A stretch of 64,000 nucleotides of DNA from Blastocatellia bacterium (GTDB lineage Bacteria > Acidobacteriota > Blastocatellia > RBC074). The position numbers and the translations under genes are program-made. The notes beneath the pieces are model-generated. The model was not told the origin of the DNA and ran no database searches. It was given only the letters and a program-made list of their open reading frames with translations. The stretch covers positions 1,290 to 65,289 of the forward strand of contig DATEMY010000298.1 of assembly GCA_035275345.1 (NCBI GenBank). Direction: 5' to 3'. Within the stretch, counting starts at the first letter, position 1. Each line of letters opens with the position of its first letter. Below, piece by piece: positions 5,371-63,509 of the stretch.

Positions 5371-5460
5371 ATGGGATTTATGGGACTTTTGGGATTTATG
5401 AGACTTATGGGACAACTATCCCATAAGTCCCATGAGTCCCATAAATCCCATAAGTCCCAT
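5371..5460. repeat. imperfect hairpin with arms made of tandem 9-nt units (TATGGGAYT / ARTCCCATA)
   Basis: Left arm 5371-5413 is atgggatttatgggacttttgggatttatgagacttatgggac. Right arm 5420-5460 is cccataagtcccatgagtcccataaatcccataagtcccat. It fills the clpB-hsp20 gap. Confidence 0.85.
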
Positions 5461-5467
5461 TTCCCAA

Positions 5468-8116
5468 TCATGACGCCCCCTTGGCGACTCTGGTCTGCGG
5501 CCCTTCCAATTGAGCGGTGAAATTTAATTTGCCGCTCGCCTGGTCGAAATCAACAAGTACAGTCTGGCCGTCACGAACCTCGCCTTTAAGAATGCGGCGT
5601 CCAAGGGGCGTTTCGATCTCGCGTTGGATCGCGCGTTTGAGCGGGCGCGCGCCATAGTTCGGATCGAAGCCCGCGCGAACCAAATGCGTGCGCGCTGAGT
5701 CGGTCAGCTCCAGATTGATGTGACGTTCGGCCAGGCGTTGTCGGAGCCTGTCTAGCTGTATCTCGACGATCTCTTTCAGGTGTTCTTCCGAGAGCGCGTG
5801 GAAGACAATGATCTCGTCGACGCGGTTAAGAAATTCGGGCCGGAAATACCGGCGCATCTCGTCCAGCACGGTCACCTTCATTCGCTCGTATTCGGCGCCC
5901 TCGAATGCTCCGCGGTATTCCAGAATGCGATGGCTGCCGATGTTCGAAGTCATGATCACGATCGTGTTTTTGAAATCCACGACGCGTCCCTGTCCATCGG
6001 TCAATCGGCCGTCGTCCAGAATTTGCAGCATGACGTTGAATACGTCGTGATGAGCCTTCTCGATCTCGTCGAAGAGGATCACAGAATAGGGGCGCCGACG
6101 GACGGCCTCGGTCAATTGCCCGCCCTCTTCGTAACCGACATAACCGGGCGGAGCGCCGACAAGGCGCGCCACGGTGTGCTTCTCTTGATACTCCGACATA
6201 TCAATGCGGATCATGGCGTGTTCGTCGTCGAAGAGGAATTCGGCCAGCGCTCGCGCCAGCTCAGTTTTGCCGACGCCGGTCGGTCCCAGAAAAATGAACG
6301 AGCCGATCGGCCGGTTCGGGTCTTTCAATCCTGAACGAGCTCTGATGACGGCTTCGGCCACCGCCGTCACGGCCTCATCCTGGCCGATCACGCGGCGATG
6401 GAGTTCATCTTCGAGCGTCAACAGCCGCTGCAATTCGCCTTCGAGCAATTTTGTGACCGGCACGCCCGTCCATCGGCTGACGACCTCGGCGATGTCTTCC
6501 TCACTGACCTCCTCTTTGATCAACCGCGTCTGTCCCTGTTTCTTCGCCAGCAGCTCTTCTTCAGCTTGAAGTCGCCGCTCAAGCTCAGCCAGTTTGCCAT
6601 AGCGCAATTCGGCGGCGCGATTGAGGTCGTACTGGCGTTCCGCCTGCTCGATCTCGATGCGAGTCTGTTCGATCTGCTCGCGCAGGTTCCGCAGGCGCTG
6701 CACTCCCTGTTTCTCCGATTGCCACTGAGCGCGTAGCGCATCGGCTGACGCGCTTAAATCGGCCAGCTCTTTTTCGAGCTTCTTCAATCGGTCGCGGGAA
6801 ACCTGGTCGGATTCCTTCTTCAACGCCTCGCGTTCGATTTCGAGTTGCATCACGCGGCGCGAAATTTCATCGAGGTCGGTAGGCATCGAATCAATCTCGG
6901 TCCGCAATTTCGCGGCGGCTTCGTCCACCAGGTCAATCGCTTTGTCCGGCAGGAAGCGATCACTGATATAGCGGTTCGAAAGCACGGCGGCGGCGACCAG
7001 CGCCGAGTCCTTGATCCGCACGCCATGATGCACTTCGTAGCGCTCCTTCAGTCCGCGCAGGATCGAAATCGTGTCCTCAACCGTCGGCTGCTCGACCAAC
7101 ACCGGCTGGAAGCGGCGTTCGAGCGCGGCGTCTTTCTCGATGTGTTTACGATATTCGTCGAGAGTCGTTGCGCCGATGCAATGCAACTCGCCGCGCGCGA
7201 GCATAGGTTTGAGCAGGTTGCCCGCGTCCATCGCGCCTTCGGCCCGCCCGGCGCCGACCACCGTGTGCAACTCGTCAATAAAAAGGATGACGCCGCCCGC
7301 CGATTCCTGAACCTCTTTGAGCACGGCTTTCAATCGCTCTTCGAATTCTCCGCGGTATTTCGCGCCGGCGATGAGCGCGCCCATATCGAGCGAGATGATC
7401 CTTTTGTCTTTCAGACTTTCGGGCACGTCGCCGCGCACGATCCGTTGGGCCAGTCCCTCGACGATCGCGGTTTTGCCCACGCCGGGTTCGCCGATCAGCA
7501 CGGGGTTGTTTTTGGTGCGGCGCGAAATCACCTGGATTGTGCGGCGGATCTCGTCGTCGCGCCCGATGACCGGATCGAGCTTGCCCTGTTCAGCGAGCTT
7601 CGTCAGGTCACGTCCATATCGTTCCAGAGCCTCGTAGGTCGCCTCCGGGTTTTGCGAAGTGACGCGATGGCTGCCGCGCGCCTCCTGAAGCGCCCGCATC
7701 AATCGTTCGCGCGTGACGCCGAATTCACGGAAGATGCGCCCTGTCGCGCCCAGGTCATCGGTCATTGCGAGCAACAGATGCTCGACCGAGACATAATCGT
7801 CCTTGAGTTTCCTGGCCTCGTCTTCGGCCTCGCCCAACAGGCGGTTGAGCCGTCCCGTGACGTAAATTTGATCAGGCGCGCCTCCGGACGCTGAAACTTT
7901 CGGCAGGCGTTGCAACTCCTGCTCGACACGATGTTTGATCGCGTCCACGTTGATTTCGGCTTTGCCAAGAACCGAGGCGGCCAGCCCGCGCTCCTGCTCC
8001 AGTAGCGCAACGAGCAGGTGCTCGACGTCAACCTGCTGATTGCCGTAGCGCGCGGCTTTCGATTGCGCAGCGCTCAATCCTTGCTGGACACTCTCTGTGA
8101 AACGATTGATATCCAT
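5468..8116 (-). CDS. clpB: ClpB disaggregase (AAA+ chaperone)
   Basis: Two AAA+ modules ([18 protein letters not shown]), a long coiled-coil middle domain and a Clp_N domain. I moved the start to ATG 8116 (MDINRFTE...). The 32 upstream ORF codons ([16 protein letters not shown]...) are translated hairpin repeat. Confidence 0.97.
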
Positions 8117-8131
8117 AATGCATTCGTTTCC

Positions 8132-8217
8132 ATGGGACGAATGAGACTTATGGGACTTATGGGGCTTATGGGACTTATGTCTCATAAGTCCCATAAGTCC
8201 CATAAGTCCCATACGTC
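8132..8217. repeat. hairpin of tandem 9-nt units (TATGGGACT family)
   Basis: The centre is gggacttatg-tct-cataagtccc (8170-8192). The arms extend about 30 bp with one bulge. It lies exactly between the clpB start (8116) and the upstream gene's stop (8218). Confidence 0.85.
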
Positions 8218-8553
8218 CTATCTCTCAAGCCTTTGCAGCCGTTCGACCTCTTTCTCCAATCTGCTTATCCGGTCGAGCAGATCGAGGATCACCGCGACGC
8301 TGGCCAGGTTCGCGCCAAGGTCGTGACGCAACCGTACGATCTTGCGAACCCGGACGACGCAATCAAGCTCGAAAAGCAATCGCGCGCCCATCCGTTCCGA
8401 CGGCTCTACCAATCCGTATTCGACAAACTGTTCGATCAGAGTCGGGTGGATTCCCGTCTGTTCGGCTAGACCTTCCAGCGTCAATTGCTCGCGCCTGATC
8501 CGCCCGATCCGCCCAAACTCGTAGATTGTGATCTGACGCCCGGTTTCATTCAT
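8218..8553 (-). CDS. MerR-family protein, CbpM-like chaperone modulator or HspR-like regulator
   Basis: 111 aa with a MerR-type HTH ([28 protein letters not shown]). The C-terminal [30 protein letters not shown] resembles E. coli CbpM (recalled from memory). The start overlaps the stop of the DnaJ-like gene. Confidence 0.7.
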
Positions 8554-9602
8554 TATCCGCCTCCATTCATCAAATCGCGGGGATTGAACCGCGATTCGGC
8601 GGCAAGCCGCTCGAACAACTCTCTCTCTCTCTGCGTCGGTTTTGTTGGGGTGACGATCTTCAACCTGACATATTCATCGCCGCGGCCTCCGCTTCGGCGG
8701 TTGAGTCCCTGGCCGCGCAGCCGCAATCGCTGGCCGCCCTGCGCGCCCGCAGGGATGGTCATTTCAACCGATCCGTCGAGCGTCGGGACGCTGACGCGCG
8801 CGCCGAGCGCCGTCTCCCAGGGCGCCACTGGCAGATCAATTTGAACATCCCCTTCGGAGGTGACGTTGAACAGCCGGTGAGGTTTTAATCGCAGGCGCAG
8901 CAGCAGGTCGCCGGAGGGCGCATTGCCCGAACCAGGCTCTCCCTGTCCCGCAAGCCGGATCACCGAACCTTCACGCACACCGGCCGGAATAGTGACGTCG
9001 AGCGTTTTCGGTCGCGTCACGACGCCCGCGCCGCGGCACGTCGGGCAAGGCTTATTGTTGACCTCGCCTGAGCCTTTACAGGCGGCGCAGGATTCCTGAG
9101 ACCGAATCGTAATCGTCCGGGACGACCCGCGATGAGCGTCTTCAAGGCTGATCTCAATCTCGGCTTCGATGTCCTGACCGCGCATTGCGAAAGGAGCGCC
9201 GCGAGCCGCGCCTCGCCTGGCCCCGAAGAGGGTTTCAAAGAAATCGCTGAATCCTCCTCCTCCGGCCCTTCCGCCGAAAATATCTCTGAGGTCGCCGTAC
9301 TCGACCCTCACGCCCTCCCATTCTCCGGCGCCATATGGCCTCCATCCGGGAGGCGGCGTGAAATCGGCCCCGGCCTTCCAGTTGGCGCCGAGTTGATCGT
9401 AGCGTTGGCGTTTTTCCGGATCGGAGAGGGCTTCGTAAGCCTCACTAATTTCCTTGAATTTTTCTTCCGCCGATTTATCGTTTGGATTTACGTCAGGGTG
9501 GAATTTGCGCGCGAGTTTTCGATACGCCTTCTTAATATCGTCCGTGGTTGCGGCGCGAGCGACGCCCAGGGTTTGGTAATAGTCGTGAAACTTAACTGCC
9601 AT
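8553..9602 (-). CDS. DnaJ-family co-chaperone with a half-size zinc-finger region
   Basis: 349 aa. Has a J domain with HPD ([14 protein letters not shown]), a Gly-rich linker, only two CxxCxG motifs ([16 protein letters not shown]), and DnaJ C-terminal domains. Confidence 0.88.
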
Positions 9603-9606
9603 AAAG

Positions 9607-9687
9607 AGTGGTTAGTGGACAGCGGGAAGCGGGCAGCGGATTACAGTTCATCAACTGCCCACCGCCCACTGCGCACTGCTCACTACT
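9607..9687. repeat. weak imperfect inverted repeat with periodic G-rich and C-rich arms
   Basis: The segment agtggttagtggacagcgggaagcgggcag faces ctgcccaccgcccactgcgcactgctcactact. Only the inner 6 bp are perfect. It lies between grpE and the dnaJ-like gene, and the right arm overlaps the grpE stop. Confidence 0.4.
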
Positions 9688-10198
9688 TCGCCACGTGTAC
9701 ACGCGCCGGACGCAGCACCTCGCCGTTCCAGAAGTATCCGGGGCTCACTTCGTCAAGCACCGTTCCAGGTTTGCCGTTGCTGGCTTCGATTACTCCTACT
9801 GCTTCGTGCAGCGCCGGATCGAACTCGCGTCCCACGGTCTCGATCGGCGTTACGCCTTGTTTCTCGATCACGTCCGCCATCCGTTTATGGATGGCGCGCA
9901 AGCCGGCGACGACCGCATTAGGCGCTTGGCCAGCGTGTTCGAGCGCGCGGTCGAAATCATCCATCAATTCCAGGAGCGAAAGAATGACGGCGCGTTTGCC
10001 CGACAGCGCCGCCGATGCCCGCTCGCGCTCGACGCGCTTGCGATAGTTGTCGAAATCGGCCAGCGCGCGTATCCGCAATGCGCGTTCACGTTCCAGCTCA
10101 TCCAAGAGACTTTTGACCTCGGCCGATGTTAGAAGGTTTTCGACCTCGGACTCTGGCCCCCCAGTGCTTTCACTCCTACTTTCCTTTGCCTTTGTCAT
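9683..10198 (-). CDS. grpE: nucleotide exchange factor GrpE
   Basis: 171 aa with the GrpE signature (ALADFDNYRKRVERE ... GYFWNGEVLRPARVHV). It sits between dnaK and the dnaJ-like gene. Confidence 0.92.
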   Translation of the reverse strand: MTKAKESRSESTGGPESEVENLLTSAEVKSLLDELERERALRIRALADFDNYRKRVERERASAALSGKRAVILSLLELMDDFDRALEHAGQAPNAVVAGLRAIHKRMADVIEKQGVTPIETVGREFDPALHEAVGVIEASNGKPGTVLDEVSPGYFWNGEVLRPARVHVAK

Positions 10199-10505
10199 CG
10201 CTTCACCGAATTAGGAAATGTCGTTTTCATGCGATCCCTTAGGACATTGTGAATTCATCGCAAACACAGCGTGATTCAAGTCCTCTGATCACCGCATTCG
10301 CGAAATTTGGATAGCAGACTATGCCGCTCGCCAAAGTTCCACTAATTGATGACCTAACTTTATTTCTCGCAATGGCTGTGCCTTTAGAGCTTATTGAAAA
10401 TCATGGAGGAGCTGACCTGCCTGCGGGCCGCTGGCGCTCGCGTATAAGCCCAATCCTGGGCGACATGCAGGTCGGCTCCTACCATCCACGCAATAGCAAA
10501 CCGCT

Positions 10506-12425
10506 CTAAGATTGCGGTTTGAATTCCGCGTCAATCACATCCTCCGGTCCGCCTGACGCGCTTCCCGGCGGGCCTTGGGCGCTGGGACCTTGGGGGCCGC
10601 CAGACGCTCCGCCTGCCGCGGCGCGCGTATAACCGGTCGCCGACAACCCCGAAGCCAGTTGCTGAAGGTCGCTCGACAATTGGCGGAGCCGTGAGATGTC
10701 GGTCGAGTTGTTTTTGACCATCTCCCGGACCTCACTGATCATCGCTTCGGCGCGCGCGCGTTCATTAGTAGGAGCGCGGTCGCCTAGTTCGCCGATCTGA
10801 CGTTCGACTTGATAGGCGATCGAATCAGCTTGATTGCGAGCGTCAACCTCTTCGCGCCGGCGCCGGTCCTCATCGGCGTGACTTTGCGCGTCGGTGACCA
10901 TGCGCTCGACCTCATCTTTGGAGAGTTGGGTCGAGCCGGTGATTGTGATGCGTTGTTCTTTTCCGGTGGCTTTGTCCTGAGCCGACGCTGTCAGGATTCC
11001 GTTGGCGTCTATGTCGAAACTGACCTCGATCTGCGGCAATCCGCGTGGCGCCGGCGCGATGCCTTCGAGCCGGAAATGGCCCAGCGTGCGGTTGTCGCGC
11101 GCCAATTCGCGTTCGCCCTGCAGTACGTGGACATCAACCGCGTTCTGATTGTCTTCGGCAGTCGAAAAGATTTCCGAACGACGCGCGGGGATGGTTGTAT
11201 TACGTTCGATCAGTTTGGTCATTACGCCGCCGAGCGTCTCCACACCGAGTGAAAGCGGCGTGACATCGAGCAGCACGACGTCCTTAACCTCACCCGCCAG
11301 GACGCCCGCCTGAATCGCCGCGCCGATGGCCACAACCTCATCCGGATTGACCGTTTGATTCGGCTCTTTGCCGCCAGTCAACCTGCGAACCAGGGACTGA
11401 ACCGCAGGGGTGCGCGTCGCGCCGCCCACCAGCACAACCTCGTCGATGTCACGGTCGGTCAGCTTGGCGTCCTGAAGCGCCTGTTTGACGGGACCCTCGC
11501 AACGTTCGACCAAATCAGCCGTCAGTTGATCGAACTTCGCGCGTGTCAGCTTCATTTCCAGATGCTTCGGTCCACTCGCGTCCGCCGTGATGAAAGGCAG
11601 GCTGATGGTGGCCTCGGTCACGCTCGACAATTCGATCTTGGCTTTCTCGGCGGCCTCGGTCAGGCGTTGCAACGACTGGCGGTCGGCGCGGAGATCAATC
11701 CCCTGATCCCGTTTAAATTCCTCGGCCAGCCAATCCACGATGCGTTTGTCAAAATCGTCGCCGCCGAGGTGAGTGTCGCCGGCAGTGGATTTGACTTCAA
11801 AGACGCCCTCCCCGACTTCGAGGATCGAGACGTCGAATGTGCCGCCGCCCAGATCGAAGACCATCACCGTTTCATTACCTTTCTTGTCCAGGCCGTAGGC
11901 GAGCGCGGCGGCCGTCGGTTCGTTGATGATCCTGAGCACGTTGAGACCGGCGATCTTGCCGGCGTCTCTGGTGGCCGTGCGCTGCGCGTCGTTGAAGTAT
12001 GCGGGAACGGTAATTACGGCGTCAGTCACCTTTTCGCCGAGATATTTCCCGGCATCGTCGGCCAATTTGCGAATCACCTGCGCCGAAATCTCTTCAGGCG
12101 CATACTGCTTGCCCTGGATTTCAAAGCGCACCGCGTCATTCGGCCCCGCGACTACTTTATACGGAACGTTCTTGATCTCGCTTTGAACCTCGCCGTATCG
12201 ACGCCCGATGAAGCGTTTGGCCGAATAGATTGTATTTTCGGGGTTGAGCACGGCTTGCCGGCGCGCGATTTGCCCGACCAGCCGTTCACCGTTTTTGGTA
12301 TAGGCCACGACGGACGGAGTCAGACGACTGCCCTCAGAGTTGATGACGACAGTCGGTTTGCCGCCTTCCATCACCGCCACCACCGAGTTAGTTGTTCCCA
12401 GGTCGATTCCTACTGCTTTTCCCAT
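10506..12425 (-). CDS. dnaK: molecular chaperone DnaK (Hsp70)
   Basis: 639 aa with Hsp70 signatures [16 protein letters not shown] and [10 protein letters not shown]. Confidence 0.98.
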
Positions 12426-12538
12426 AATCTACCTTTACCGACAAGCCCAGGCTTGCGGTTACCTGATCAGAATGCTTTTTCACTTTCAGCGTCCCGCTAG
12501 CTAAAGACGCGGCGATCGGACGGTTTGCCGGACGTCAT

Positions 12539-13123
12539 TCAATGACTCGGCGCCATTCGAGGCTCTTGTGGCGCCCGTCCACCTGTGTCGCGCAATGAGC
12601 GCATTTTGAACCCAAGCATAATCATCAAAATGCCCAGGGCGAATGCAAAAGTCCCGATCATCCATAGAACTGAAAGCGCGCCCACCCCAGGGAAGATCAC
12701 CAGGAATATGCCGAACATGATCAAAAGAACTCCGGCCAACGCGTCCAGCCATTCGCCTGGGACTATGCGCCGCAACCTGATGGCGGTGATGAGTTCGAAG
12801 AACCCGACCATGATCGCCCAGAACGCGATCATAAAGAGCAGTCCCATTGCGGTCAGCCCGGGCCAGAAAAATGTCAGAATTCCGATGCCGATGCCTAATA
12901 TGCCGCCGACCAAGTACGCCCACCATGGTTGCTGCCGATCCTCGTCATGCCTGAACGCGGCGAATACCGAGAAGATGCCGTCCACCAGCGCATACGCGCC
13001 GAATAGCGCCACCAGCGCGGCTAACGTGATTCCAGGCCAGGCGAATGTGGCGATTCCGAACAGCAAAGCGACTACCCCGCGCAACGCCAGCGCCCACCAG
13101 TTTTGGGTCATCAAATTGAACAT
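12539..13123 (-). CDS. HdeD/DUF308-family membrane protein
   Basis: Has the repeated TM pattern WWALALRGVVALLFGIATFAWPG. I chose the ATG at 13123 (MFNLMTQNWW) because it is preceded by GGAG. The ORF extends to 13213. Confidence 0.8.
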   Translation of the reverse strand: MFNLMTQNWWALALRGVVALLFGIATFAWPGITLAALVALFGAYALVDGIFSVFAAFRHDEDRQQPWWAYLVGGILGIGIGILTFFWPGLTAMGLLFMIAFWAIMVGFFELITAIRLRRIVPGEWLDALAGVLLIMFGIFLVIFPGVGALSVLWMIGTFAFALGILMIMLGFKMRSLRDTGGRAPQEPRMAPSH

Positions 13124-13380
13124 AGCGATCTCCTTCCAATAATTTAAAACTGAGACTGAACAGCTTGTTTCAGGCGCTTGCTCATTTTGAATGAACAAAT
13201 TCTCCTGAGACATATTCAGCCGTGTCTCGAATGCGCTGTCGTTATTCGGGCAATTGATATGCCGGGTCGGCGTCGCGGAGGAAAGACCGTACGCTATATT
13301 TCATTGATGAGTGAGCTTTACCTCGTCCAGCTTTTCGGAGTCGCTCCACCCTTAACCATGGCGCCCAACTGATGAGGGAA

Positions 13381-13479
13381 AAGAGAGATTACGGAACAAA
13401 CGGAAATAACGGAACAGACTGAAAAAACCGAAAATCTTCAGTCTGTTCCGTTATTTCCGTTTGTTCCGTAATCTCTCTT
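13381..13479. repeat. perfect 43-bp-stem hairpin with periodic arms (ACGGAACA/ACGGAAAT units)
   Basis: Segment 13381-13423 (aagagagattacggaacaaacggaaataacggaacagactgaa) is the exact reverse complement of 13437-13479. The loop is 13 nt. Confidence 0.95.
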
Positions 13480-13542
13480 CGACCTGGTCTGAATCAGCGT
13501 CGATGCTTCATGCCAAACAGCAAATGGCAAATGGCAAGATAA

Positions 13543-14772
13543 TTATCTTATGACCCATTCCTGTTTAAACTTCCTGGTCTCGCCGCCGGGCAGGCTGACG
13601 ACGATCTTGTCCCCCTCGACGGCCTTGACCTTGACCTCTCCGTATGCGGGCAATTTGACCACGTCGCCCGGCCTGATGCGCGACTCCGCCTGCTGATGGT
13701 AAGCGAAGAGCAGGTCAATGAAATCGGGTTTGGCCAGGCCTTCGGAGGCGCGCGACCGCTCGGCCGCCGGCCGGGAGCAATTGTCGCAATGGCCGCACTC
13801 CTTCAAAACCGTCCGTCCCTCTCGCGGGGCGACTTCGGCGCCAACATAATCGAGCATCAGCTTCCACCGGCATTCGGGGCTTTGGGCGTAAAGGGTCATA
13901 CGTTCGAGTCTTTGACGGTCGCTCGCGCCTTTGCTCGTATATTCGCTCGCCAGGCGTATCATTTCTCGCTCGCTGAGGTCCCGCTTCAACAGCGTGAAAC
14001 GCGCGCCTCGGCGCTCTTTTATAAATCCCATGTTTTTGAGCAGCGAAAGGATCGCGCGCACTTTGATCCTGGCCACCTCGCCCGCGCTGGTTTGGATTTG
14101 TTCAAGCGGCGCGGACGCGAGATCGGCTCCGAGCAGTTTCAGCGTTTCGTAGACCGCGATTACTTCTTCCGGCTTCGGAGCCCTTCCGCTCATACAGAAT
14201 AACTGTGTGCGCCGGTCGGCGATCTGGAAGAGCAGCGTGCAGCGGGCCGGACAGCCGTCGCGTCCCGCGTGTCCGGTTTCACGATAATACGCTTCAATCG
14301 AGATCGGCAGGTCGAAATGAATCACGAACCTGATGTCGGGCTTGTCAATCTCCATGTGCTCTGGCGAGGCCAAAGCGTCAGAGGCCATCTCGGAGGCGCC
14401 GGTTGCGACTATCGCCTTCAGGTTGCCAGCCATGAACCGATCACGGTTCCGGCGCCGTTCAGTTGCGCTCAATTGCCCATGGTATGGCGCGACATCGAAT
14501 CCGACGCTGCTGAGGTAATCAACGCTGGCTTTGACATCTCGGACTGTCGTGGCGTAGATGACTCCTCTCCCCTCGTTTTCTCTCAGCAACCTGACCAGCG
14601 ATAGTTGCTTCTCGCCCTCGTTGCTGACACGTTCCACTTCATAGTTCAGATTCGGGCGGTAGACGCCAGGTTTGACGCTGGGATGGCCCTTTTCGAAAGT
14701 ATCATTCGTAGTTCCATTTGAATCAGAAATACTATTGATCATAACCACATTCCTTAGCACATTCCTTATCAA
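13543..14772 (-). CDS. RecQ-family helicase fragment lacking ATPase lobe 1 (possible gene remnant)
   Basis: 409 aa starting at the RecQ 'RPNLxYxV' block. Has helicase-C motifs (YHGQLSATERR, HAGRDG) and the Zn motif CGHCDNC. No Walker A or DEAH is present. An insert disrupts 'ATxAFGMGIDKPD'. Confidence 0.65.
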   Translation of the reverse strand: MIRNVLRNVVMINSISDSNGTTNDTFEKGHPSVKPGVYRPNLNYEVERVSNEGEKQLSLVRLLRENEGRGVIYATTVRDVKASVDYLSSVGFDVAPYHGQLSATERRRNRDRFMAGNLKAIVATGASEMASDALASPEHMEIDKPDIRFVIHFDLPISIEAYYRETGHAGRDGCPARCTLLFQIADRRTQLFCMSGRAPKPEEVIAVYETLKLLGADLASAPLEQIQTSAGEVARIKVRAILSLLKNMGFIKERRGARFTLLKRDLSEREMIRLASEYTSKGASDRQRLERMTLYAQSPECRWKLMLDYVGAEVAPREGRTVLKECGHCDNCSRPAAERSRASEGLAKPDFIDLLFAYHQQAESRIRPGDVVKLPAYGEVKVKAVEGDKIVVSLPGGETRKFKQEWVIR

Positions 14773-15105
14773 TTACTTTTGTTCTTTCTTTGTACACAAC
14801 TGTAGCTCTTCGGGTCATCCTGACCAGACAATAGGACGCGCGGGCGGGGGCATTCGGTCTCCAGCAAACGGAATGCAGAAGCGCGTTGATCTTCAAGATT
14901 TACTTTTACGCGGCCATCCGCCACAACGTTTGTTGCCTGAAGCTACGCGGCGTGACCGCCGCGCTTTGACTGCGAATCGATGCGATGCGGAATGAGAATT
15001 GATTGCGGGATAATGGCGCGTGCGCTTCAGACAGGGCGGCAGGCGCGGGCCTACGCTGGTTCTGTCTGTGCGATTGCGGATTATTATTTCAATGGGGTGC
15101 AAACG

Positions 15106-15390
15106 ATGAGAGAGAAGAAGAAACAGGACAATTCAACGGACGAAACGCTGGAAACCCGAGCGTCCTCATCAGCTATCAGAGAGAGACGAGTTTCCGCCGG
15201 GGAACCGGACGACGAGCAGAACCTCTTGAGCGAGCTGATCGCGCGGCGGGCTTATGAAATTTACGAGGAACGTGGCCGGAGCGACGGCGAAGACATGAAT
15301 GACTGGCTCAGAGCCGAAGCCGAGATAAAGTCCGCATTTACGGCGAAAGAGCCGAGGCCCATGGCGTCACGCGTCAGGGCGCGACAGTAA
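15106..15390 (+). CDS. DUF2934-like small protein
   Basis: The segment LIARRAYEIYEERGRSDGEDMNDWLRAEAEI matches the DUF2934 pattern as I recall it. The start is uncertain; the ORF opens at 14980. Confidence 0.55.
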   Translation: MREKKKQDNSTDETLETRASSSAIRERRVSAGEPDDEQNLLSELIARRAYEIYEERGRSDGEDMNDWLRAEAEIKSAFTAKEPRPMASRVRARQ

Positions 15391-15460
15391 CGCCAGCTCA
15401 GGTCTCAAACCGAAGCCGGTCTCAGTAGATCAGGAACAGGAGCTTCATTTTCCAGATCGG

Positions 15461-15518
15461 ATTTGTCATTTGTCATTGCCTGAGCCAATCTTTCAATGAC
15501 AAATGACGAATGACGAAT
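15461..15518. repeat. hairpin with 7-nt periodic arms (TTGTCAT / ATGACAA)
   Basis: atttgtcatttgtcattg (15461-15478) faces caatgacaaatgacgaatgacgaat (15494-15518). The right arm overlaps the first possible treZ start. Confidence 0.8.
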
Positions 15519-15523
15519 ATCAA

Positions 15524-17488
15524 ATGAATATTCACATCGGAGCTGGGGTATTGCCCCAGGGAGGAACATATTTTCGCGTTTGGGCGCCGCGCCGCCGTAC
15601 GGTCGAGGTGGTGATCGAGGGCGTGGCCGAGAAGGATCGGAATGGCCGAACATCCCTGGAATTGACGCCGGAAGGCGCAGGCTATTTCTCCGGTCTGATC
15701 CAAGAGGTCGGCGCCGGAGATCTCTACCGCTATCGTCTGGACGGGGAAGACCGGCTTTACGCCGACCCGGCTTCGCGCTATCAGCCCGAAGGCCCGCACG
15801 GCCCGTCACAGATCGTTAATCCAGCCCGATTCGAATGGACTGATCACGACTGGCGAGGAGTGGAGTTGCGCGGCCAGGTGATTTACGAAATGCACATCGG
15901 TACGTTTACGCGCGAAGGCGTGTGGTCGGCGGCCATGCAGGAACTCAACGAACTTGCCCGCCTGGGGATAAGCTTGATCGAAGTTATGCCGATAGCCGAT
16001 TTTCCCGGAAGGTTCGGCTGGGGTTATGACGGCGTGAATCTTTTTGCGCCGTCGCGGCTCTACGGCTCGACTGATGACTTCAGGCGCTTCGTTGATCGCG
16101 CTCACGCGATTGGAATCGGCGTGATTCTCGATGTCGTTTACAACCATCTGGGGCCGGATGGGAATTACCTGAGGGAGTTCGCCGAGGATTACTTCACCGA
16201 CCGTTACGTGACCGATTGGGGCGCCGCGATTAATTTCGATGGGGCGAACGCCGGGCCCGTGCGCGAATATTTCATCGCCAACGCCGGGTATTGGATTGAT
16301 GAGTTTCATCTCGACGGATTGCGGCTTGACGCGACACAGAACATCTACGATTCGTCGGACGATCATATCCTGGCGGCCATTAGCCGCCGTGTTCGTGACG
16401 CCGCGCGTGGACGCGCGACTATTCTCATCGCCGAGAACGAGCCGCAGGAGACGATCCTTGTCCGGGCGCCTGAGGAAGGCGGTTATGGGATTGACGCGCT
16501 CTGGAACGACGATTTCCATCACAGCGCGATGGTGGCGATGACCGGACGCAATGAAGCCTACTACACCGATTATCTGGGTAAGCCGCAGGAATTCGTCTCG
16601 GCCATCAAATACGGCTACCTTTTTCAAGGCCAGTGGTACAAGTGGCAGAAGAAACCGCGGGGGACCCCAGGTCTGAAGATTCAACCACCGGCCTTCGTTA
16701 CCTTCATTCAGAACCACGACCAGGTCGCGAATTCGGGGCGTGGCGAGCGATGTCATCAATTGACCAGCCCCGGGCGATATTGCGCAATGACCGCCCTGAC
16801 GCTGCTCGGGCCCGGCACGCCGATGCTCTTTCAGGGGCAGGAATTCGCCGCGGACAGCCCGTTTTTCTACTTCGCCGATCACAATCAGGAGCTGGCGGAT
16901 CTGGTCCGCAAAGGCCGCTCAGCGTTCCTCTCGCAATTCCGCAACCTCGCGACGCCCGGAATTCAGGCCGTTCTGGTCAACCCCGGCGACCTCCAGACGT
17001 TCGAACGATCGAAACTCGATCTGTCCGAGCGCGAAACTCATTCGGCGATCTACGAAATGCATCGCGATCTGTTAAGGCTGCGGCGCGAAGACCCGACCTT
17101 CGCCGCACAGCGCATGGGAGCGGTTGACGGAGCCGTTCTCGGCGATGAAGCCTTCGTCTTGCGGTTCTTCGGCGAAGACGATGACGACCGTTTGCTGCTG
17201 GTCAATCTCGGCGTAGACCTGCGCCTCGACATCGCGCCGGAACCGTTGCTTGCGCCGCCTGAAGGGACGGAGTGGCGCATATTGTGGTCGAGCGAAGACC
17301 CGCGGTACGGCGGACTGGGCATCGCGCCGCTCGATACCGAAGAGAGCTGGCATTTGCCCGGCCACGCGGCGTTGGCGCTCGGTCCAGCGCCGAAACCGGA
17401 AGAGAAGATTCTGGCGGCCCAGCGCCGAAAAGAAGCTGAATGGAGAGGAGACATTCATCTCACAGTGGACGACGCTAAGAAACAATGA
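15524..17488 (+). CDS. treZ: malto-oligosyltrehalose trehalohydrolase (GH13)
   Basis: GH13 blocks VILDVVYNHLG, GLRLDA, IAENE and FIQNHD are present, with an N-terminal E-set domain (YFRVWAP). The start is ATG 15524 or 15503. Confidence 0.88.
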   Translation: MNIHIGAGVLPQGGTYFRVWAPRRRTVEVVIEGVAEKDRNGRTSLELTPEGAGYFSGLIQEVGAGDLYRYRLDGEDRLYADPASRYQPEGPHGPSQIVNPARFEWTDHDWRGVELRGQVIYEMHIGTFTREGVWSAAMQELNELARLGISLIEVMPIADFPGRFGWGYDGVNLFAPSRLYGSTDDFRRFVDRAHAIGIGVILDVVYNHLGPDGNYLREFAEDYFTDRYVTDWGAAINFDGANAGPVREYFIANAGYWIDEFHLDGLRLDATQNIYDSSDDHILAAISRRVRDAARGRATILIAENEPQETILVRAPEEGGYGIDALWNDDFHHSAMVAMTGRNEAYYTDYLGKPQEFVSAIKYGYLFQGQWYKWQKKPRGTPGLKIQPPAFVTFIQNHDQVANSGRGERCHQLTSPGRYCAMTALTLLGPGTPMLFQGQEFAADSPFFYFADHNQELADLVRKGRSAFLSQFRNLATPGIQAVLVNPGDLQTFERSKLDLSERETHSAIYEMHRDLLRLRREDPTFAAQRMGAVDGAVLGDEAFVLRFFGEDDDDRLLLVNLGVDLRLDIAPEPLLAPPEGTEWRILWSSEDPRYGGLGIAPLDTEESWHLPGHAALALGPAPKPEEKILAAQRRKEAEWRGDIHLTVDDAKKQ

Positions 17489-17495
17489 AAATCGC

Positions 17496-17576
17496 CCCAG
17501 GGAGGGTCGATGAGACTAATGGAACTTGTGAGACTAATGGACATAAGTCCCATTAGTCCCATCGACCCTCCCTGGG
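17496..17576. repeat. hairpin, TATGGGACT-family variant (GAGACTAATGG units)
   Basis: cccagggagggtcgatgagactaatgg... faces ...ccattagtcccatcgaccctccctggg. It lies between the treZ stop (17488) and the GDE start (17603). Confidence 0.85.
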
Positions 17577-17602
17577 ATTTTCGCAGTAGAGGGAAGGAAC
17601 TA

Positions 17603-19642: not shown

Positions 19643-19656
19643 ATTGGATTTCAGAA

Positions 19657-48094: not shown

Positions 48095-48114
48095 CTGGCC
48101 AAACCCGGTTTTTA

Positions 48115-48199: not shown

Positions 48200-48230
48200 G
48201 ATAAGATAGCTCGGAGAGGTATCCAACGAA

Positions 48231-50075
48231 ATGTCTCGAGTTGATCAGTCTAAAGACGCGCCGTTGAGGGCGGACATTCGCCGTTTGGGCGATTTACTGG
48301 GCGAAACGCTCAGAAGGCTTGGTGGCGAGCGCCTTTTTGAAATCGAAGAGAATGTCCGCGCGTTTTGCAAACGACTCCGCAGCGAGCATCCTGACAAAGG
48401 GGCGGGGAAGAGGGCGGCCACTACCGAGCGGGAGCTAAGACGGTTGCTTCAACGCCTGAGCCTCGATGAAACAATAGGGGTGATCCGAGCCTTCTCGGTC
48501 TACTTTCAACTCGTCAACATAGCTGAGCAGCGTCACCGCATTCGTCGCAAGCGATTTTACGACCTTCACACTCCTGATCAGCCTCAACGAGGCTCGATTG
48601 CAGAGACGCTGAGAAGTTTGAGGCGCAATTTTTCCGATACGGGCTTGTTACAGGGCGTGATCGATCGTTTGGAGATCGTGCCGGTGATGACCGCGCATCC
48701 GACCGAAGCCGCGCGGCGGACTCTGCTCGAAAAACATCGCCGCATCGCTGAATTGCTCGCCGATTTCGATGATCAAGACCTGGCCCCGCGAAGTCGGGCC
48801 GAATTGCAGTCGCGGCTTGCCGCCGAGGTCGAATCGGTCTGGCAGACTGACGAGGTGCGCCACACACAACCGACTGTGCTCGATGAAGTCAATCATGGAC
48901 TTTATTACTTCGACGCGACCTTGTTCGACGCCGCGCCCGCGCTGCTCGATGAGCTGGAGCGGGGGTTGGAAGAGAATTTTCCCGGAGTCGAATTGCGCGA
49001 CGGCGCGTCGCCGCTGCGGTTCGGATCGTGGATCGGCGGCGACCGCGACGGCAATCCATTCGTCACGCCCGAAATCACCTGGGAGACGCTGAGGCTGCAA
49101 CAGCGCCTGGTCTTGCGAAAATATCGCGACGCCGTGGCCGAGCTGGGCCGCCGTCTGAGCGAATCGTCGCGCTTCGCCCCGCCGACCGGCGAGCTAAGGA
49201 CTTCGCTGACTCGCGACGCAAAACAATTGCCCGGAGTGGCGACGGAGGTCGTCGCGCGAAACGCCGAAGAGCCTTACAGGCAGAAGCTCTCCTACATCTA
49301 CACGAGAATCGAAAACACGCTCCGCCGCAACCGCGCCCTCGCTTCGGCGCTGCGTCTAACCGAACAGCATACGCTGATTTCAATTCGGCCGGGATTGCCT
49401 GTTATCGCCGCGCTCACCGGCTCTGACACTCATCAGGCCAATGTATACCGGGCCGGCGCAGAATTGTGGGAAGATTTAAGGCTCATACGTGACGGCTTAC
49501 TCGCGGGCAAGGCCGTTTACGCGGCGCGCGCGGTCGACCGGTTGATGCGGCAAGTGACGGTGTTCGATCTGCATCTGGCGAAGCTCGACCTGCGACAGCA
49601 CAGCGAGCGTCACACGGCGGCCTTGTCCGAAATCACGCGCGCGCTCGGATTGCGCGATTACGCGCGGATGAGCGAAGAGGAGCGGGTCGAGTGGTTGACG
49701 CGAGAGCTGACCACTCCGCGTCCCCTTGTGGCGACCGATTCGTATTACAGCGCCGAGACGACCGAAACATTGAATGTTTTCCGAGCCGCCCGCCGCGCGC
49801 TCGACGAGATCAGCCCAAACGCGATCGGCGCCTATATCATCAGCATGACGCGTGATGTCAGCGATCTGCTCGCGGCGCTCGCGCTGGCAAAGGAAGCGGG
49901 AATGGTGGAATGCGGAATGCGGAATGCGGAATGCGGATTGACAGCTCCGGACCGTGGAATGCGGAATGCGGAATGCGGATTTGATCAGGGCTCCGCATTC
50001 CGCATTCCGCATTCCGCATTCCGCATTCATCAGCCTCCAATAATTCCCGCCACACCGCATTGCACACAGCGATAG
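48231..50075 (+). pseudogene. ppc: phosphoenolpyruvate carboxylase, C-terminal third missing
   Basis: VMTAHPTEAARRT, GSWIGGDRDGNPFVT and YIISMTRDVSDLLA are present. Homology ends near 49903 (LALAKEAGM), where the heptamer repeat starts. The C-terminal PEPC blocks (FHGRGG, the C-terminal NTG) are absent. Confidence 0.72.
49907..50028. repeat. heptamer-array hairpin (GGAATGC x4, x3, then inverted GCATTCC x5)
   Basis: Direct blocks lie at 49907-49937 and 49956-49979. The inverted block is at 49992-50028. Confidence 0.92.
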
Positions 50076-52317: not shown

Positions 52318-52324
52318 AAATAGT

Positions 52325-52424
52325 ATGGGATTATAGGACGTATGGGATGTATGGGACTTATAGGACGTATGGGACTGATCGGTCCCATACGTCCTATAAG
52401 TCCCATACATCCCATACGTCCCAT
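52325..52424. repeat. hairpin with perfect 40-bp stem, TATGGGACT-family 9-nt periodic arms
   Basis: Segment 52336-52375 is the exact reverse complement of 52382-52421. The loop is tgatcg. It lies between tdk and glpX. Confidence 0.95.
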
Positions 52425-53499: not shown

Positions 53500-54098
53500 C
53501 CCACAGCAGCGACAACGAAGCCACCGACATCCTGCTCAAGAAGGTCGGGGCGGGGAACGTGACCGCGACCATGCGCTCGATGGGATTGAATAACATCCGC
53601 GTTGACCGCACCACGTTCGAACTGATCCGAGATTACCTTGGTTTCATGGACGAGAACGCGCGCGGCAAGACCTACCATGAGATTATTTCCACGTCGCGAG
53701 CGGCTCCGGCCACGCCGGAAAGACAGGCCGCGGCTGAACGCGAGTTCGCAAAAGTGATGAAGGACGTTTCGTCGCCCCGCGACATGACCCGGTTACTCGA
53801 AAGGATTTACAACGGCGAAGCGGCGAGTAAAGAGTCAGGCCGGATGATGATGACCATTCTGAGCCAGCAAATGTTCAACCAACGATTGCCGCGTTATCTG
53901 CCTGAATCGTCCCGAATGGCGCACAAGACAGGAACCATCGGCTCAACGACCAACGACGCGGGCGTCATGTTCGTCCGCGGAAATCCGATTGCGATCGCCG
54001 TCTTCACGGTTGACAAGCGGATCTCTCGCGGCGAGGTCGAAGAGCTGATGGGACGACTGACGCGCGCGGTTTACGATTTCTTCGACGCCGTCAAATAG
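53499..54098 (+). pseudogene. class-A beta-lactamase-like serine hydrolase lacking its N-terminal third
   Basis: The frame opens at 53490. It begins at the SDN motif ([13 protein letters not shown]) and has KTG (HKTGTIGS). No SxxK region is present, and it abuts or overlaps the glpX stop. Confidence 0.6.
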
Positions 54099-59792: not shown

Positions 59793-59852
59793 ATGTCCTT
59801 ACATACGCGCTCTTGTGTCCGCATGTCCTTACATACGCGCTCTTGTGTCCGC
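59793..59852. repeat. perfect 30-bp tandem duplication
   Basis: atgtccttacatacgcgctcttgtgtccgc occurs twice, at 59793-59822 and 59823-59852. Confidence 0.95.
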
Positions 59853-61280: not shown

Positions 61281-61391
61281 AACAATGAAAAACATCCTCG
61301 AAGTCACACGAAGAAACACGAATGAAAAGAGAATATCTTCGCGCCTCCTGGTGTGGCTTGGCGGATGTTTTCCCGCAGGAGGAATAACGAA

Positions 61392-63221
61392 GTGGGAAAC
61401 ATTTTTGCCGTTATATCTCCCGACGAGTCCGAATCGAAATCGGAGGAATTATTCAAGGCGGGGTTGAGATGCGCGCAACGAATTAAATCTCAATCGCCGA
61501 AAAACAGAATTGATGACGCCTGCGCTCGCGCCGCTTCCTTCGCGCGGCGGAACGGGTCGGGCGGCAATCTGGCGACTGACGCCGCGACCGGATGCTGGCT
61601 GATGGCCGCAGGGTCATGGTTTCACTCTGACGGTTACGGAGCCGGAGACGAGGAATGGCTGCTTCAGCGCTTGCTTGAAGTTACCGTGACGCGCGTGGCG
61701 CCTGACCTGGAGGGATTTTTTGTCATCATCTTTTGTGACTCGCGCGCGCGCGAGGTCTTCGTGGTCACCGATCTGATTGGCAGCAGGCATTGTTTCATGC
61801 GCGCCATCGGCGACTGCGTGGCTTTGTCCACCTCATCGTTATTGCTCGCGGCTTTGGACGAAGCCACGCCCGACTCGCTGGCTTGCGAGGAGTTTTTGCG
61901 CACGGGGGCGATTTACGAAGACCGCACGCTCTTTCGGGAGGTCAAGAAACTCGCGCCCGCCACGATCTACCGTTTTGCTGATGGGGCCCTGGTTGATGAA
62001 ATCTGTTATTGGCGGATGTCCGATCTCGATCCCGAGGCGTATGATGGCGAAGACGCCGCGCACGTCCTGGGCGAAGATTTGATCCGCGTGGCCGAGCGGA
62101 TCACCGCGGTGTATCGGCGCCCGGTCTGCGATCTGACCGGCGGTTACGATTCGCGGTTGGTGGTGGCCGCTTTTTTTAACGCCGGAATCGGGTTCGAAAC
62201 AACCGTCACAGGTTATGACACCGATCCCGACGTGGTTATTTCAAAAGGGCTGTCGAAGTTGATCGGCGCGCCGAACAGGCGTTTCAGTCCCGGCGAACCG
62301 GTGCGGCCCGAGCGGCTTAAAGAGGCGCTGCGATTGACCGACGGCGAATGCGATCTGATTCAGTATGCGCGCGTCCATTTGTTGAGCAACCGTCTTTCGG
62401 CCGAATTCGACGTGAGCGTCAATGGGTCGTATGGAGAAATCGCGCGCGGCTATTGGTGGAACCTGCTCTTCCCGAAGATGGGCAGACGCGAACAGATAGA
62501 TTCCCGCCGACTGGCGGCCAAACGTTATGCGGTTGATCCATGCTGTCCCGATCTCTATCCTCCTGACGCCGGCCTGGCGGACGGCGGTTCGGACTTCGTC
62601 GGGCATCTGGCCACGGTCATCGGCCGTTTGAATGAGGGACTGGAGGGATGGCCGAACACGGCGCAGATGGACCATGCCTATCTGATGCTGCGAATGCAGC
62701 GGTGGCAGGGAAGGGTCGCCAGCGCCACCGACCAGATCTGGCCTTGCCTCTCGCCGTTTATGTTTCGCTCGGCGCTCGAGACGTCGCTCCAGACGACCGT
62801 CCGTACGCGCAAACACAGCCGCCTCGTTCGCAGTCTGATGACGATGATGAGCCAGCAACTGGCCGCCTATCCGCTCGAACATGGACATCCGGCGGCGCCG
62901 CTGACTTTGAAGTATTTGCCGCAATTTGCGCTCGCAGCCTGGCGTTACGCTCCAAAAGCCTTTAGCGACGCCTTTCAGCGATGGCTTGATCGTCCCGACA
63001 CATCGTCGGAAACTAAGCCGGACCGTTTGCGGTTGTTGGACGATGAAGAGATTCGTGAAACCCTCGATCCCGCAAACATGAGATTGAGTCGTTTGATCGA
63101 CCCGCTGCGGTTGCGTGATTTTCTCGAATCGTCGCAGCAGGCCTGCTTCGCTTTCGATCAGCAATGGCGCCGCGTGTTGGCCGCCGAGATGACGCTGAGA
63201 TTCGTCAACGGTAGTCAGTGA
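61392..63221 (+). CDS. asparagine-synthase-family protein lacking the N-terminal Cys nucleophile
   Basis: GTG 61392 follows AGGAGG by 8 nt, giving the N-terminus (M)GNIFAV instead of MCGI. The synthetase domain has PVCDLTGGYDSRLVV (PP-loop-like). Confidence 0.72.
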   Translation: MGNIFAVISPDESESKSEELFKAGLRCAQRIKSQSPKNRIDDACARAASFARRNGSGGNLATDAATGCWLMAAGSWFHSDGYGAGDEEWLLQRLLEVTVTRVAPDLEGFFVIIFCDSRAREVFVVTDLIGSRHCFMRAIGDCVALSTSSLLLAALDEATPDSLACEEFLRTGAIYEDRTLFREVKKLAPATIYRFADGALVDEICYWRMSDLDPEAYDGEDAAHVLGEDLIRVAERITAVYRRPVCDLTGGYDSRLVVAAFFNAGIGFETTVTGYDTDPDVVISKGLSKLIGAPNRRFSPGEPVRPERLKEALRLTDGECDLIQYARVHLLSNRLSAEFDVSVNGSYGEIARGYWWNLLFPKMGRREQIDSRRLAAKRYAVDPCCPDLYPPDAGLADGGSDFVGHLATVIGRLNEGLEGWPNTAQMDHAYLMLRMQRWQGRVASATDQIWPCLSPFMFRSALETSLQTTVRTRKHSRLVRSLMTMMSQQLAAYPLEHGHPAAPLTLKYLPQFALAAWRYAPKAFSDAFQRWLDRPDTSSETKPDRLRLLDDEEIRETLDPANMRLSRLIDPLRLRDFLESSQQACFAFDQQWRRVLAAEMTLRFVNGSQ

Positions 63222-63389
63222 AAATTCGGAACGGATTGACGGAATTTTTCAGAATTTGTGATGGGACCTAAACGCGTTGCGACGCCCTGAAACTCAGCGT
63301 GCCTTGCATGGATCAAAGACCGGATTAAGAACCCACGCACGCTGGAAGCGATGCGTACCCAGGGATTTTCTATAGCGGTTTTCATTTGC

Positions 63390-63509
63390 GTGTACAGGTT
63401 AATGGAACGCGGATGACGCGGATCAAGCGGATGATCGCGGATACACCCTAAGAAAGATCAGCGTAAATCCGCTTGATCCGCGCCATCCGCGTTCTATTAG
63501 CCCGTACAC
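63390..63509. repeat. hairpin with 43-nt periodic arms (GCGGATSA units)
   Basis: gtgtacaggttaatggaacgcggatgacgcggatcaagcggat (63390-63432) faces atccgcttgatccgcgccatccgcgttctattagcccgtacac (63467-63509), with about 5 mismatches. Confidence 0.88.

Follow-up and report, generated by a model that had tools for sequence, protein, structure and literature searches.

Introduction

Tandem arrays of short G-rich units that face an inverted copy of themselves have been described in Xanthomonas. Rehm et al. 2015 (PMC4692102) reported GGGAATC arrays there, with 70-75 convergent inverted pairs in each genome and four as the preferred number of units; the arrays sit between aligned ORFs (open reading frames), are transcribed, form G-quadruplexes (G4) in vitro and have no known function. 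The same study found GGGGA(C/T)T heptamers in Nostoc, with few inverted pairs. In this work, we describe hairpins whose arms are tandem arrays of 7-9-nt units in 64,000 nucleotides of DNA from a Blastocatellia bacterium, an uncultured soil acidobacterium (GenBank assembly GCA_035275345.1, contig DATEMY010000298.1, positions 1,290 to 65,289), the whole of which is referred to as the window. As in the Xanthomonas repeats (PMC4692102), G-rich 7-nt units stand in tandem, about four per array, in convergent pairs with the same G-first chirality. Likewise, most window elements lie in spacers flanked by co-oriented ORFs, near stop and start codons, and their unit number varies.

Other repeats share some of these properties. 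Mazel et al. are said to have described, in 1990, cyanobacterial short tandemly repeated repetitive (STRR) sequences, which are intergenic tandem heptamers in many copies. Rickettsia palindromic elements (RPEs), reportedly described by Ogata et al. in 2000, are 100-150 nt long, fall into defined families and lie in frame in protein genes. For long-unit simple sequence repeats (SSRs; Mrazek et al. 2007, summarised in PMC4679880), 7 nt is the commonest unit and slippage the proposed origin. Repetitive extragenic palindromes (REPs), together with the bacterial interspersed mosaic elements (BIMEs) and REP doublets (REPINs) associated with REP-associated tyrosine transposases (RAYTs), are abundant extragenic palindromes, often arranged as inverted doublets and occasionally found in frame in ORFs (Di Nocera et al. 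2013, PMC3733652; Bertels & Rainey 2011, PMC3116915).

We show that the arrays of the Blastocatellia hairpins gain and lose units, that their loops flip, and that whole elements appear, vanish and are replaced at given sites between close relatives. The periodic hairpins are the fastest-changing feature between near-identical strains. The reading that we prefer, and to which we give about even credence, is that they are palindromic long-unit SSRs, that is, fast-evolving selfish or neutral DNA and not selected RNA elements.

Results

Hairpins with periodic arms in the window

The window has a G+C content of 57% and carries, on the minus strand, the operon dnaK-grpE-dnaJ-hspR-clpB-hsp20-lon. Its other genes include glycogen and trehalose genes, PSCyt/PSD1/DUF1501 genes, PEP carboxylase (PEPC), glpX and glycosyltransferases. 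Tandem Repeats Finder (TRF) and an inverted-repeat search recovered all 11 loci that an earlier note on this DNA had listed, each as an array of period 7, 8 or 9 (2.4-10.4 copies by TRF) followed by the reverse-complement array. That note had counted at least 15 loci of one architecture. There are 15 periodic loci, but only 12 of them are hairpins, the others being two unpaired arrays and one half-copy. The hairpin at 9613-9685 comes in addition to the 11 that the note had listed. All loci are given below, with predicted RNA folding energies.

5365-5466, hairpin: unit ATGGGAYTT (9 nt), about 5 units per arm, arms of 48 nt, 83% complementary; -62.5 kcal/mol, z -9.7; fills the clpB-to-hsp20 spacer from 1 nt past the clpB stop to 13 nt before the hsp20 start.
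8132-8221, hairpin: unit ATGGGACTT, arms of 43 nt, 88% complementary; -61.5 kcal/mol; fills the hspR(merR)-to-clpB spacer, overlapping the hspR stop and ending 15 nt before the clpB start.
9613-9685, imperfect hairpin: unit YAGYGGG (7 nt), grpE-to-dnaJ spacer; -44.4 kcal/mol, z -4.9.
13381-13479, hairpin: heterogeneous units ACGGAACAA/ACGGAAATA/ACGGAACAG, perfect stem of 43 bp, loop 13424-13436; -81.1 kcal/mol, z -16.2.
15461-15518, hairpin: unit ATTTGTC (7 nt), upstream of a glgX-like gene; -26.9 kcal/mol.
17496-17576, hairpin: ATGRRACTW array inside a non-periodic outer stem, CCCAGGGAGGGTCG, glgX-like-to-GDE spacer; -61.3 kcal/mol.
23209-23263, unpaired array: direct GGATTGC, 2 + 4 units, 55 nt, within a treY-like ORF (21346-24435) that runs across it uninterrupted.
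31505-31630, hairpin: unit GACRGGGG (8 nt), with the CNNM stop codon (31552) inside the left arm; -82.2 kcal/mol.
31631-31665, half-copy: right arm of the 13381 element, 33/35 bases identical, heterogeneous units included.
32760-32792, unpaired array: CAATGGG (7 nt), enclosed by inverted repeats 32625-32668 / 32802-32845.
37145-37234, hairpin: core ACGGAT every 9-10 nt, PSCyt-to-DUF1501 spacer, stem perfect over 34/34 (44 nt at 91%); -70.9 kcal/mol, z -15.7.
48110-48204, hairpin: unit ACAAAGGG (8 nt), SASA-to-PEPC spacer; -50.7 kcal/mol.
49907-50028, hairpin: (GGAATGC)4, spacer, (GGAATGC)3, loop, (TCCGCAT)5, in frame in PEPC after LAKEAG; -85.1 kcal/mol.
52323-52424, hairpin: ATGGGAC family (ATGGGAYNT/ATAGGACGT) with heterogeneous units, TK-to-glpX spacer; -83 kcal/mol, z -14.1.
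63371-63528, hairpin: 72-nt arms, 81% complementary, inner part periodic GCGGATnn (63407-63442); -86.6 kcal/mol; ends 11 nt before a cob(I)alamin adenosyltransferase gene.

The perfect stems of 34-43 bp that had been claimed were found at 13381-13423/13437-13479 (43/43), 52336-52375/52382-52421 (40/40) and 37145-37178/37201-37234 (34/34). Several hairpins have non-periodic outer stems (17496-17576; 63371-63528), and the design of the former, an outer stem around an inner array, recurs in contigs L108, L113, L150, L162 and L167. With AAGAGAGA at 31514, the stretch 31505-31665 looks like an 8-mer hairpin nested within a copy of the ACGGAA hairpin. The inverted repeats around the CAATGGG array (44 nt, 95%, 133-nt spacer) also enclose a small hairpin and lie in a convergent intergenic region.

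These structures exceed chance expectation. A dinucleotide-shuffle control gave no hairpin of comparable size in 20 shuffles, as against 10 in the window that have 20 or more matched pairs, 7 of which reach 30 or more. All 12 hairpins had predicted folding energies between -27 and -87 kcal/mol (z -4.9 to -16.2), and 0/200 shuffles folded as well. Their density in the window is about 1 per 5 kb. Under identical settings, 6 periodic hairpins were detected in the 64 kb of the window versus 5 in 1.36 Mb around 80 ClpB loci of other phyla, one each from Acidobacteriota, Ardenticatenaceae, Chloroflexota, Anaeromyxobacter and a verrucomicrobial genome. The class is not restricted to contig joins, the only hairpin at a join being that at 49992-50028. 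An assembly artefact was ruled out for the class as a whole, since the same hairpins occur inside contigs L081, L082, L084 and L087 of an independent assembly and at orthologous sites in other samples.

Change between strains and relatives

The same organism is represented in the independent ENA assembly ERZ27257057 by contigs L081, L082, L084 and L087, at 99.8-100% identity. The relatives compared (L097, L124, L104, L085/L086, L208 and L150/L162/L167) share 77-89% nucleotide identity with the window and were found through exact-protein look-ups and a DNA pattern scan. ClpB was too conserved as a probe, the closest among the matches listed having 80% protein identity and belonging to other acidobacterial families.

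Over about 55 kb at 99.8-99.98% identity, the independent assembly differed from the window in structure at two points only. The 13-nt loop 13424-13436 was reverse-complemented, with 1/13 bases also different, and the right arm of the hairpin 31505-31630 carried one extra 8-nt unit at 31608. Single-base differences across the four contigs numbered about 23, around half of them within the last 150 nt of L081. Among the more distant relatives, the presence/absence comparison that the earlier note had proposed revealed gain, loss and replacement at orthologous sites, as follows.

clpB/hsp20: hairpin in the window; none in L097 and L001.
SASA/PEPC: hairpin in the window; none in L085, L086 and L208, which have a gap of 3 nt between the genes.
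Upstream of treY: none in the window; ATGGGAC hairpin in L104.
Inside treY (site G): none in the window; in-frame GGATTGC hairpin in L104.
hspR/clpB: ATGGGACNN in the window; same family with different unit numbers in L097 and L124.
TK/glpX: ATGGGAC family in the window; same family in L150, L162 and L167.
grpE/dnaJ: YAGYGGG in the window and likewise in L124; about 9 units of CAGGTGT/CAGGTTC per 66-nt arm in L097.
MFS spacer: GGAATGC in the window; GGATTGC in L162.
PSCyt/DUF1501: ACGGAT hairpin in the window; GTAG-REP doublet in L085, L086 and L208.

At the site of the unpaired window array 23209-23263, L104 has a (GATCGAG)n hairpin. In the same contig, CACAGAG and CAGGTGT hairpins (7370-7520 and 8380-8470) flank a stretch of about 0.9 kb that is missing from the window (19630-19670).

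Symmetry and chirality of the arms

In three hairpins the arms were 100% complementary and the units within each arm heterogeneous, with within-arm period scores of 0.62 (13381), 0.50 (37145) and 0.81 (52336). The combination means that the pattern of unit variants is mirrored between the arms. Recent inverted copying, or conversion of one arm by the other, is indicated here rather than compensatory evolution. Separate, telomerase-like synthesis of both arms was ruled out by the exact mirroring of the heterogeneous variants.

The arms are also polarized. With duplicates removed, the periodic hairpins of all loci numbered 65, of which 49 had a G-rich 5' arm, 9 a C-rich one and 7 a neutral one; G-first outnumbered C-first by 31:2 within the ATGGGAC family and by 18:7 among the others. 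A palindrome has the same chirality on both strands, and therefore the direction of transcription or replication is not its cause. The chirality would follow if snap-back occurs with the G-rich strand nascent, or if selection disfavours C-rich 5' arms, for instance because Rho would load on them.

G-rich units raise the question of whether the elements act as DNA, either as G4 (with i-motifs opposite) or as protein-binding arrays that shape the nucleoid, supercoiling or replication. GGG is present in every unit at 7/13 loci, four copies of ATGGGACTT fit a G3N6 spacing, and the median of 3.9 units per arm (66 hairpins) is near the four-unit preference reported, together with G4 formation in vitro, by Rehm et al. 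(PMC4692102). The conserved 7-mer core ATGGGAC followed by two variable bases resembles a recognition site. Four G3 tracts per array occur with ATGGGACNN, GACRGGGG, ACAAAGGG and AGCGGGM but are missing with ACGGAA, ACGGAT, GCGGAT, GGAATGC and ATTTGTC, five unit families with only GG or no G-run. Pairing between complementary arms competes with G4 formation, the elements are dispensable between close relatives, and we know of no protein that binds the hairpin units. A role as DNA is accordingly very unlikely in our view.

Recurrence of unit families across loci and genomes

The earlier note took the unit to be different at every locus, which proved incorrect. Four window loci (5365, 8132, 17496 and 52323) have ATGGGACNN in common, GGAATGC/GGATTGC (GGAWTGC) occurs at 49907 and 23209, and the ACGGAA pattern occurs at 13381 and 31631, where 13445-13479 and 31631-31665 share 33/35 bases. 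A 30-nt heterogeneous array, TTCCGTTATTTCCGTTTGTTCCGTATTCTC, is identical at window positions 31631-31660 and in the distant genome L209, whose PEPC is 67% identical. A metagenome scan for 2.8 tandem copies of ATGGGACTT matched at least 120 contigs; the array was in hairpin form in 32 of the 80 loci examined in detail, all with a G+C of 0.51-0.66. Hairpins of ATGGGACNN were found in Blastocatellia and in the Thermoanaerobaculia-like contig L143, whose closest proteins come from Acidobacteriota and Thermoanaerobaculia metagenome-assembled genomes (MAGs; 84-87% identity). The CAGGTGT unit forms a hairpin between grpE and dnaJ in L097 and another elsewhere in L104. In L107 (25-250), hairpins are nested, ATGGGACNN forming the inner arms and GTGAGTG units the outer ones. 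A link to phages was considered and set aside, the ATGGGACTT array being present on one viral contig and the ACGGAA pattern on none. A full-text literature search for six unit strings returned one unrelated paper only.

In four pairs of filled and empty sites, no local seed was found in the empty alleles, no target duplication and no conserved termini. Taken together with the recurrence of heterogeneous arrays, the absence of a seed at empty sites means that some copying route between loci or genomes exists. Such a route could be transposition in trans, for example by an HUH/Y1 transposase, of non-autonomous mobile elements resembling MITEs (miniature inverted-repeat transposable elements) or REPINs, with slippage remodelling them afterwards. 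This explanation is possible, though we hold it doubtful. It would account for filled and empty sites that show no seed nearby, for the dispersed heterogeneous-arm copy, the nested arrangement at 31505-31665 and the 30-nt pattern in a distant genome, and for unit families common to many contigs. Furthermore, GTAG-REP doublets, which are RAYT-associated, occupy the same PEPC codon in L209 and the same PSCyt/DUF1501 spacer in L085, L086 and L208, and REPs within ORFs are documented (PMC3733652). However, the periodic hairpins lack target-site duplications, conserved termini and a GTAG or CGTC tag, and the four site pairs did not show the combination of terminal inverted repeats and target-site duplication that defines a MITE. 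The true GTAG doublets of the relatives (GTAGTCCCGCCTTCAGGCGG) are clearly distinct from them. At least eight unit families in a single genome would need many cognate enzymes, or one that reads structure only, and every copy has a different unit number. No RAYT was seen within the 64-kb window, and no transposase domain among 40 window ORFs scanned against Pfam.

Elements in the PEPC gene and the contig join

The earlier note placed most hairpins between co-oriented genes. This holds for 11/12. The hairpin 49907-50028 is not intergenic and lies inside the PEPC gene. The window PEPC ORF departs from PEPC after LAKEAG, precisely at the start of (GGAATGC)n, and its product (614 aa) is identical to HKQ75698.1. 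Contig L087 is identical to the window up to 50028 and continues with VSPLFETIED into a full PEPC of 997 aa, in which the hairpin is translated as 43 extra residues. On contig L082, the match to the window extends from 57973 down to 49992, beyond which the contig enters an MFS gene through a hairpin of its own, (GGAATGC)3-loop-(TCCGCAT)5. The PEPC and MFS/M20 loci, which L087 and L082 keep apart, share only the 37-nt (TCCGCAT)5 array, and the window joins the 5' 60% of PEPC to MFS/M20. A separate partial PEPC C-terminus (P0121) has an accession of the HKQ series, consistent with the same MAG. Judging from these alignments, the window contig is most likely chimeric at 49992-50028, in the right arm of the PEPC hairpin.

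Across 120 homologues, the PEPC loop LAK(E/Q)AG...VSPLFET is a recurrent insertion site. Its basal form is AGLSRLAV, the longest loops exceed this by about 43 residues, and many of the inserts look like periodic peptides encoded by palindromes. Many PEPC gene calls stop at the hairpin element. At the DNA level, four types of element occupy the same codon, all of them in frame; for the first three, the residues gained over the basal loop are given.

L087, 11670-11800: GGAATGC hairpin in the PEPC loop (43 residues).
L086, 11680-11753: perfect (GGATTGC)4-loop-(TCCGCAA)4 in the PEPC loop (24 residues).
L208, 11677-11767: GACGGGGC hairpin in the PEPC loop (34 residues).
L209, 7679-7744: perfect 29-bp GTAG-REP doublet in the PEPC loop.

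A palindromic repeat thus lies in frame in conserved PEPC and is missing from orthologues, which is RPE-like behaviour without any sequence relation to RPEs. In L086 the element runs in the order array, loop, inverted array and array tail, which is what a strand switch inside an array already in place should give, and its loop is approximately the reverse complement of the window PEPC loop, which makes this the second loop flip. In L085, which is 99.8-100% identical to L086, the PEPC hairpin has collapsed to one unit with a frameshift. L086 also has a 48-nt in-frame deletion in a conserved segment of PEPC near 12742 (compared with L085 12669-12716). The lesions in L085 and L086 are either assembly errors or signs of a decaying gene. 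P0012 has only LVDCGLRIAV at the PEPC site; back-translated, this could be encoded by three direct GGATTGC units lacking an inverted arm.

Placement and possible roles in RNA

The gaps between the hairpins and the upstream stop codon range from -48 to +149 nt, and those to the next start codon are as small as 11-15 nt. The hairpins of the heat-shock operon begin between -8 and +1 nt relative to the stop of the upstream gene and leave 13-15 nt to the start codon that follows, so that the elements fill the room between the stop codon and the ribosome-binding site (RBS). This placement fits a tolerance filter. For the three hairpins of the dnaK-clpB-lon operon, a heat-shock RNA thermometer or a HAIR/CIRCE operator was considered and, on inspection, rejected, given stems of -44 to -62 kcal/mol and an architecture that is window-wide. 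GATC at the apex was likewise set aside: by eye it lay in or near the loop of four window hairpins (52376, PEPC, 37145 and 63443), and in the larger set it occurred in 8/66 loops, no commoner than other 4-nt palindromes.

Placement and stability would also suit RNA elements selected in polycistronic transcripts, such as REP-like stabilisers, RNase III sites or terminators and attenuators without a T-tract. We consider such a function unlikely. The position of nearly all hairpins between co-oriented genes and their extreme stabilities agree with it. A hairpin also persists at grpE/dnaJ, hspR/clpB, PSCyt/DUF1501 and TK/glpX despite sequence change, and the Xanthomonas repeats are mostly transcribed (PMC4692102). 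In positions 1-20000, terminator-like sites (stem plus T-run) numbered 13, as against 22 +/- 4.7 in shuffles; classical intrinsic terminators may be rare in this organism, which might call for a different signal at 3' ends. No periodic hairpin was among these 13 sites, and no T-run followed the stems elsewhere in the window.

Stem mismatches do not bear out selection on RNA structure, one of the causes that the earlier note had offered. In nine hairpins of known transcript direction, 13 mismatches were G:U-compatible in the sense strand, 19 in the antisense strand and 21 in neither. There is no sense-strand excess, and hence no sign of selection for RNA pairing. The arms, moreover, are perfect as young copies would be and not through compensatory change. 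About half of the compared sites are lineage-specific, and in-frame copies lie in PEPC and treY, where an RNA barrier would harm. The REP-like mRNA-stability or attenuator role suggested by the earlier note is therefore not supported by the tests run, given the missing T-runs, the turnover between close relatives and the in-frame coding copies; only transcript mapping can exclude it.

Other features of the window

An Rfam scan of the whole window gave 0 matches at the gathering score, and a tRNA scan of the whole window found none. A non-periodic palindrome, ACCGGTACAGTACCGCG..., lies upstream of the PSCyt/PSD1 gene in the window (34065-34142), in L086 (989-1022) and in L208 (502-583). In contrast to the periodic hairpins, its sequence is conserved among relatives; it may be an operator. 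Further features are listed by position.

13543-14772: apparent gene fragment, a RecQ-like ORF with Helicase_C and Zn-binding domains and without a DEAD domain; L081 ends and diverges just within the recQ 3' end.
38408-38712 / 39474-39778: 305-nt direct repeat (92%) of the DUF1501 3' end, bracketing an insertion with a BrnT-toxin gene.
40000-44150: block of low G+C (0.48) with CHAT, NIF3 and ODP genes, adjoining the BrnT insertion and missing in L085 and L086.
53559-54098: apparent gene fragment, a beta-lactamase ORF matching profile positions 105-214 only.
59793-59852: 30-nt unit ATGTCCTTACATACGCGCTCTTGTGTCCGC in perfect tandem duplication between two glycosyltransferase genes.

Discussion

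Viewed as palindromic long-unit SSRs, the elements would each consist of a tandem array of a 7-9-nt unit, typically 3-5 units with the G-rich strand first, joined to its own inverted copy. The inverted arm would arise when an existing array is copied by a strand switch, or snap-back, and template switching within the palindrome would uphold the complementarity of the arms. New sites would be seeded by copying from other loci. Selection would act mainly as a filter, with elements surviving in spacers between a stop codon and an RBS, or in frame within a tolerant gene loop. Transcribed elements should form very stable stem-loops, which would be good RNase III substrates or barriers to 3' exonucleases. 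Such effects at the RNA level are probably side consequences and not the reason for the elements.

The earlier note had offered local generation, by fold-back duplication of a tandem array, as a likely cause. This agrees with the mirrored variants in three hairpins, the order of segments in the L086 element, and the unit slippage and loop inversion between strains. Generation cannot be purely local, however, as a heterogeneous array occurs at two window loci and in a distant genome and empty sites contain no local seed.

Several observations weigh against the SSR reading. Slippage and fold-back alone do not explain why particular unit families, and one heterogeneous pattern of 30 nt, recur at several loci and in distant genomes; this recurrence hints at a dedicated mobilising activity or a sequence-specific function. 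The hspR/clpB and TK/glpX sites keep their unit family across about 85-89% nucleotide divergence, and two further sites keep some hairpin though the sequence is replaced, so structure could be needed there. The G-first chirality (49/58 skewed hairpins) requires an extra assumption. In addition, the G:U test is based on 53 mismatches only, and every sequence is a metagenome assembly, in which repeat unit counts could carry assembly error.

Some of these points would be met by an unrecognised structure-reading process, perhaps enzyme-dependent, that writes short G-rich arrays, by copying or by synthesis, at DNA ends or hairpin targets and joins them head to head. We regard this as quite improbable. 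If true, it would explain the G-first chirality in both Acidobacteriota and Xanthomonas, the seeding without target duplications, including a PEPC codon hit by at least four element types, and the identical heterogeneous arrays in distant genomes. It would also be a new route of bacterial genome change, one that diversifies protein loops as well.

The elements have practical consequences. At a genome size typical for the group, they would amount to on the order of a thousand palindromes of 30-45 bp, a large load of DNA prone to secondary structure. They break or mis-join metagenome assemblies, as at the one join in the window, and add 20-40 residues to conserved enzymes. Annotators should have transcript data before calling them terminators or regulatory RNAs. 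Their chirality and the recurrence of units across genomes offer handles on how such repeats arise and spread.

The relation to known repeats can be stated for each in turn. Like REPs, which stand behind stop codons between co-oriented or convergent genes, the window hairpins follow stop codons between co-oriented genes, and REP doublets share sites with them in relatives. REPs, on the other hand, have a fixed sequence of 20-40 nt that is tagged by GTAG or CGTC and lacks internal periodicity, whereas the periodic hairpins have no tag and a variable unit number. Like RPEs, they include in-frame palindromic inserts translated as extra loops (PEPC, treY); unlike RPEs, they are tandem arrays, and the lineage is unrelated. 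STRR sequences and long-unit SSRs were described as direct arrays, and the paired inverted arrangement of the window hairpins falls outside that definition.

The Xanthomonas repeats remain the closest system, although they belong to another phylum and the present hairpins to Acidobacteriota. The earlier note did not know the architecture as a described class. Inverted pairs of this architecture had already been described in Xanthomonas (Rehm et al. 2015; PMC4692102), and what stands of the claim is that the hairpins are a richer variant of the kind noted there. Xanthomonas has one dominant unit per genome, but the 64-kb window holds at least eight families of 7, 8 and 9 nt. Unlike the Xanthomonas units, many of those in the window have no G3 runs, and their stems are near-perfect over 34-43 bp. 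While 83% of the Xanthomonas repeats are conserved between Xcc and Xac (PMC4692102), the window elements are unstable between relatives. In-frame coding copies, loop flips and the dispersal of heterogeneous arrays are seen here and were not reported for Xanthomonas (PMC4692102). A phenomenon known for a single Xanthomonas unit thus extends to many families of units in a major soil phylum.

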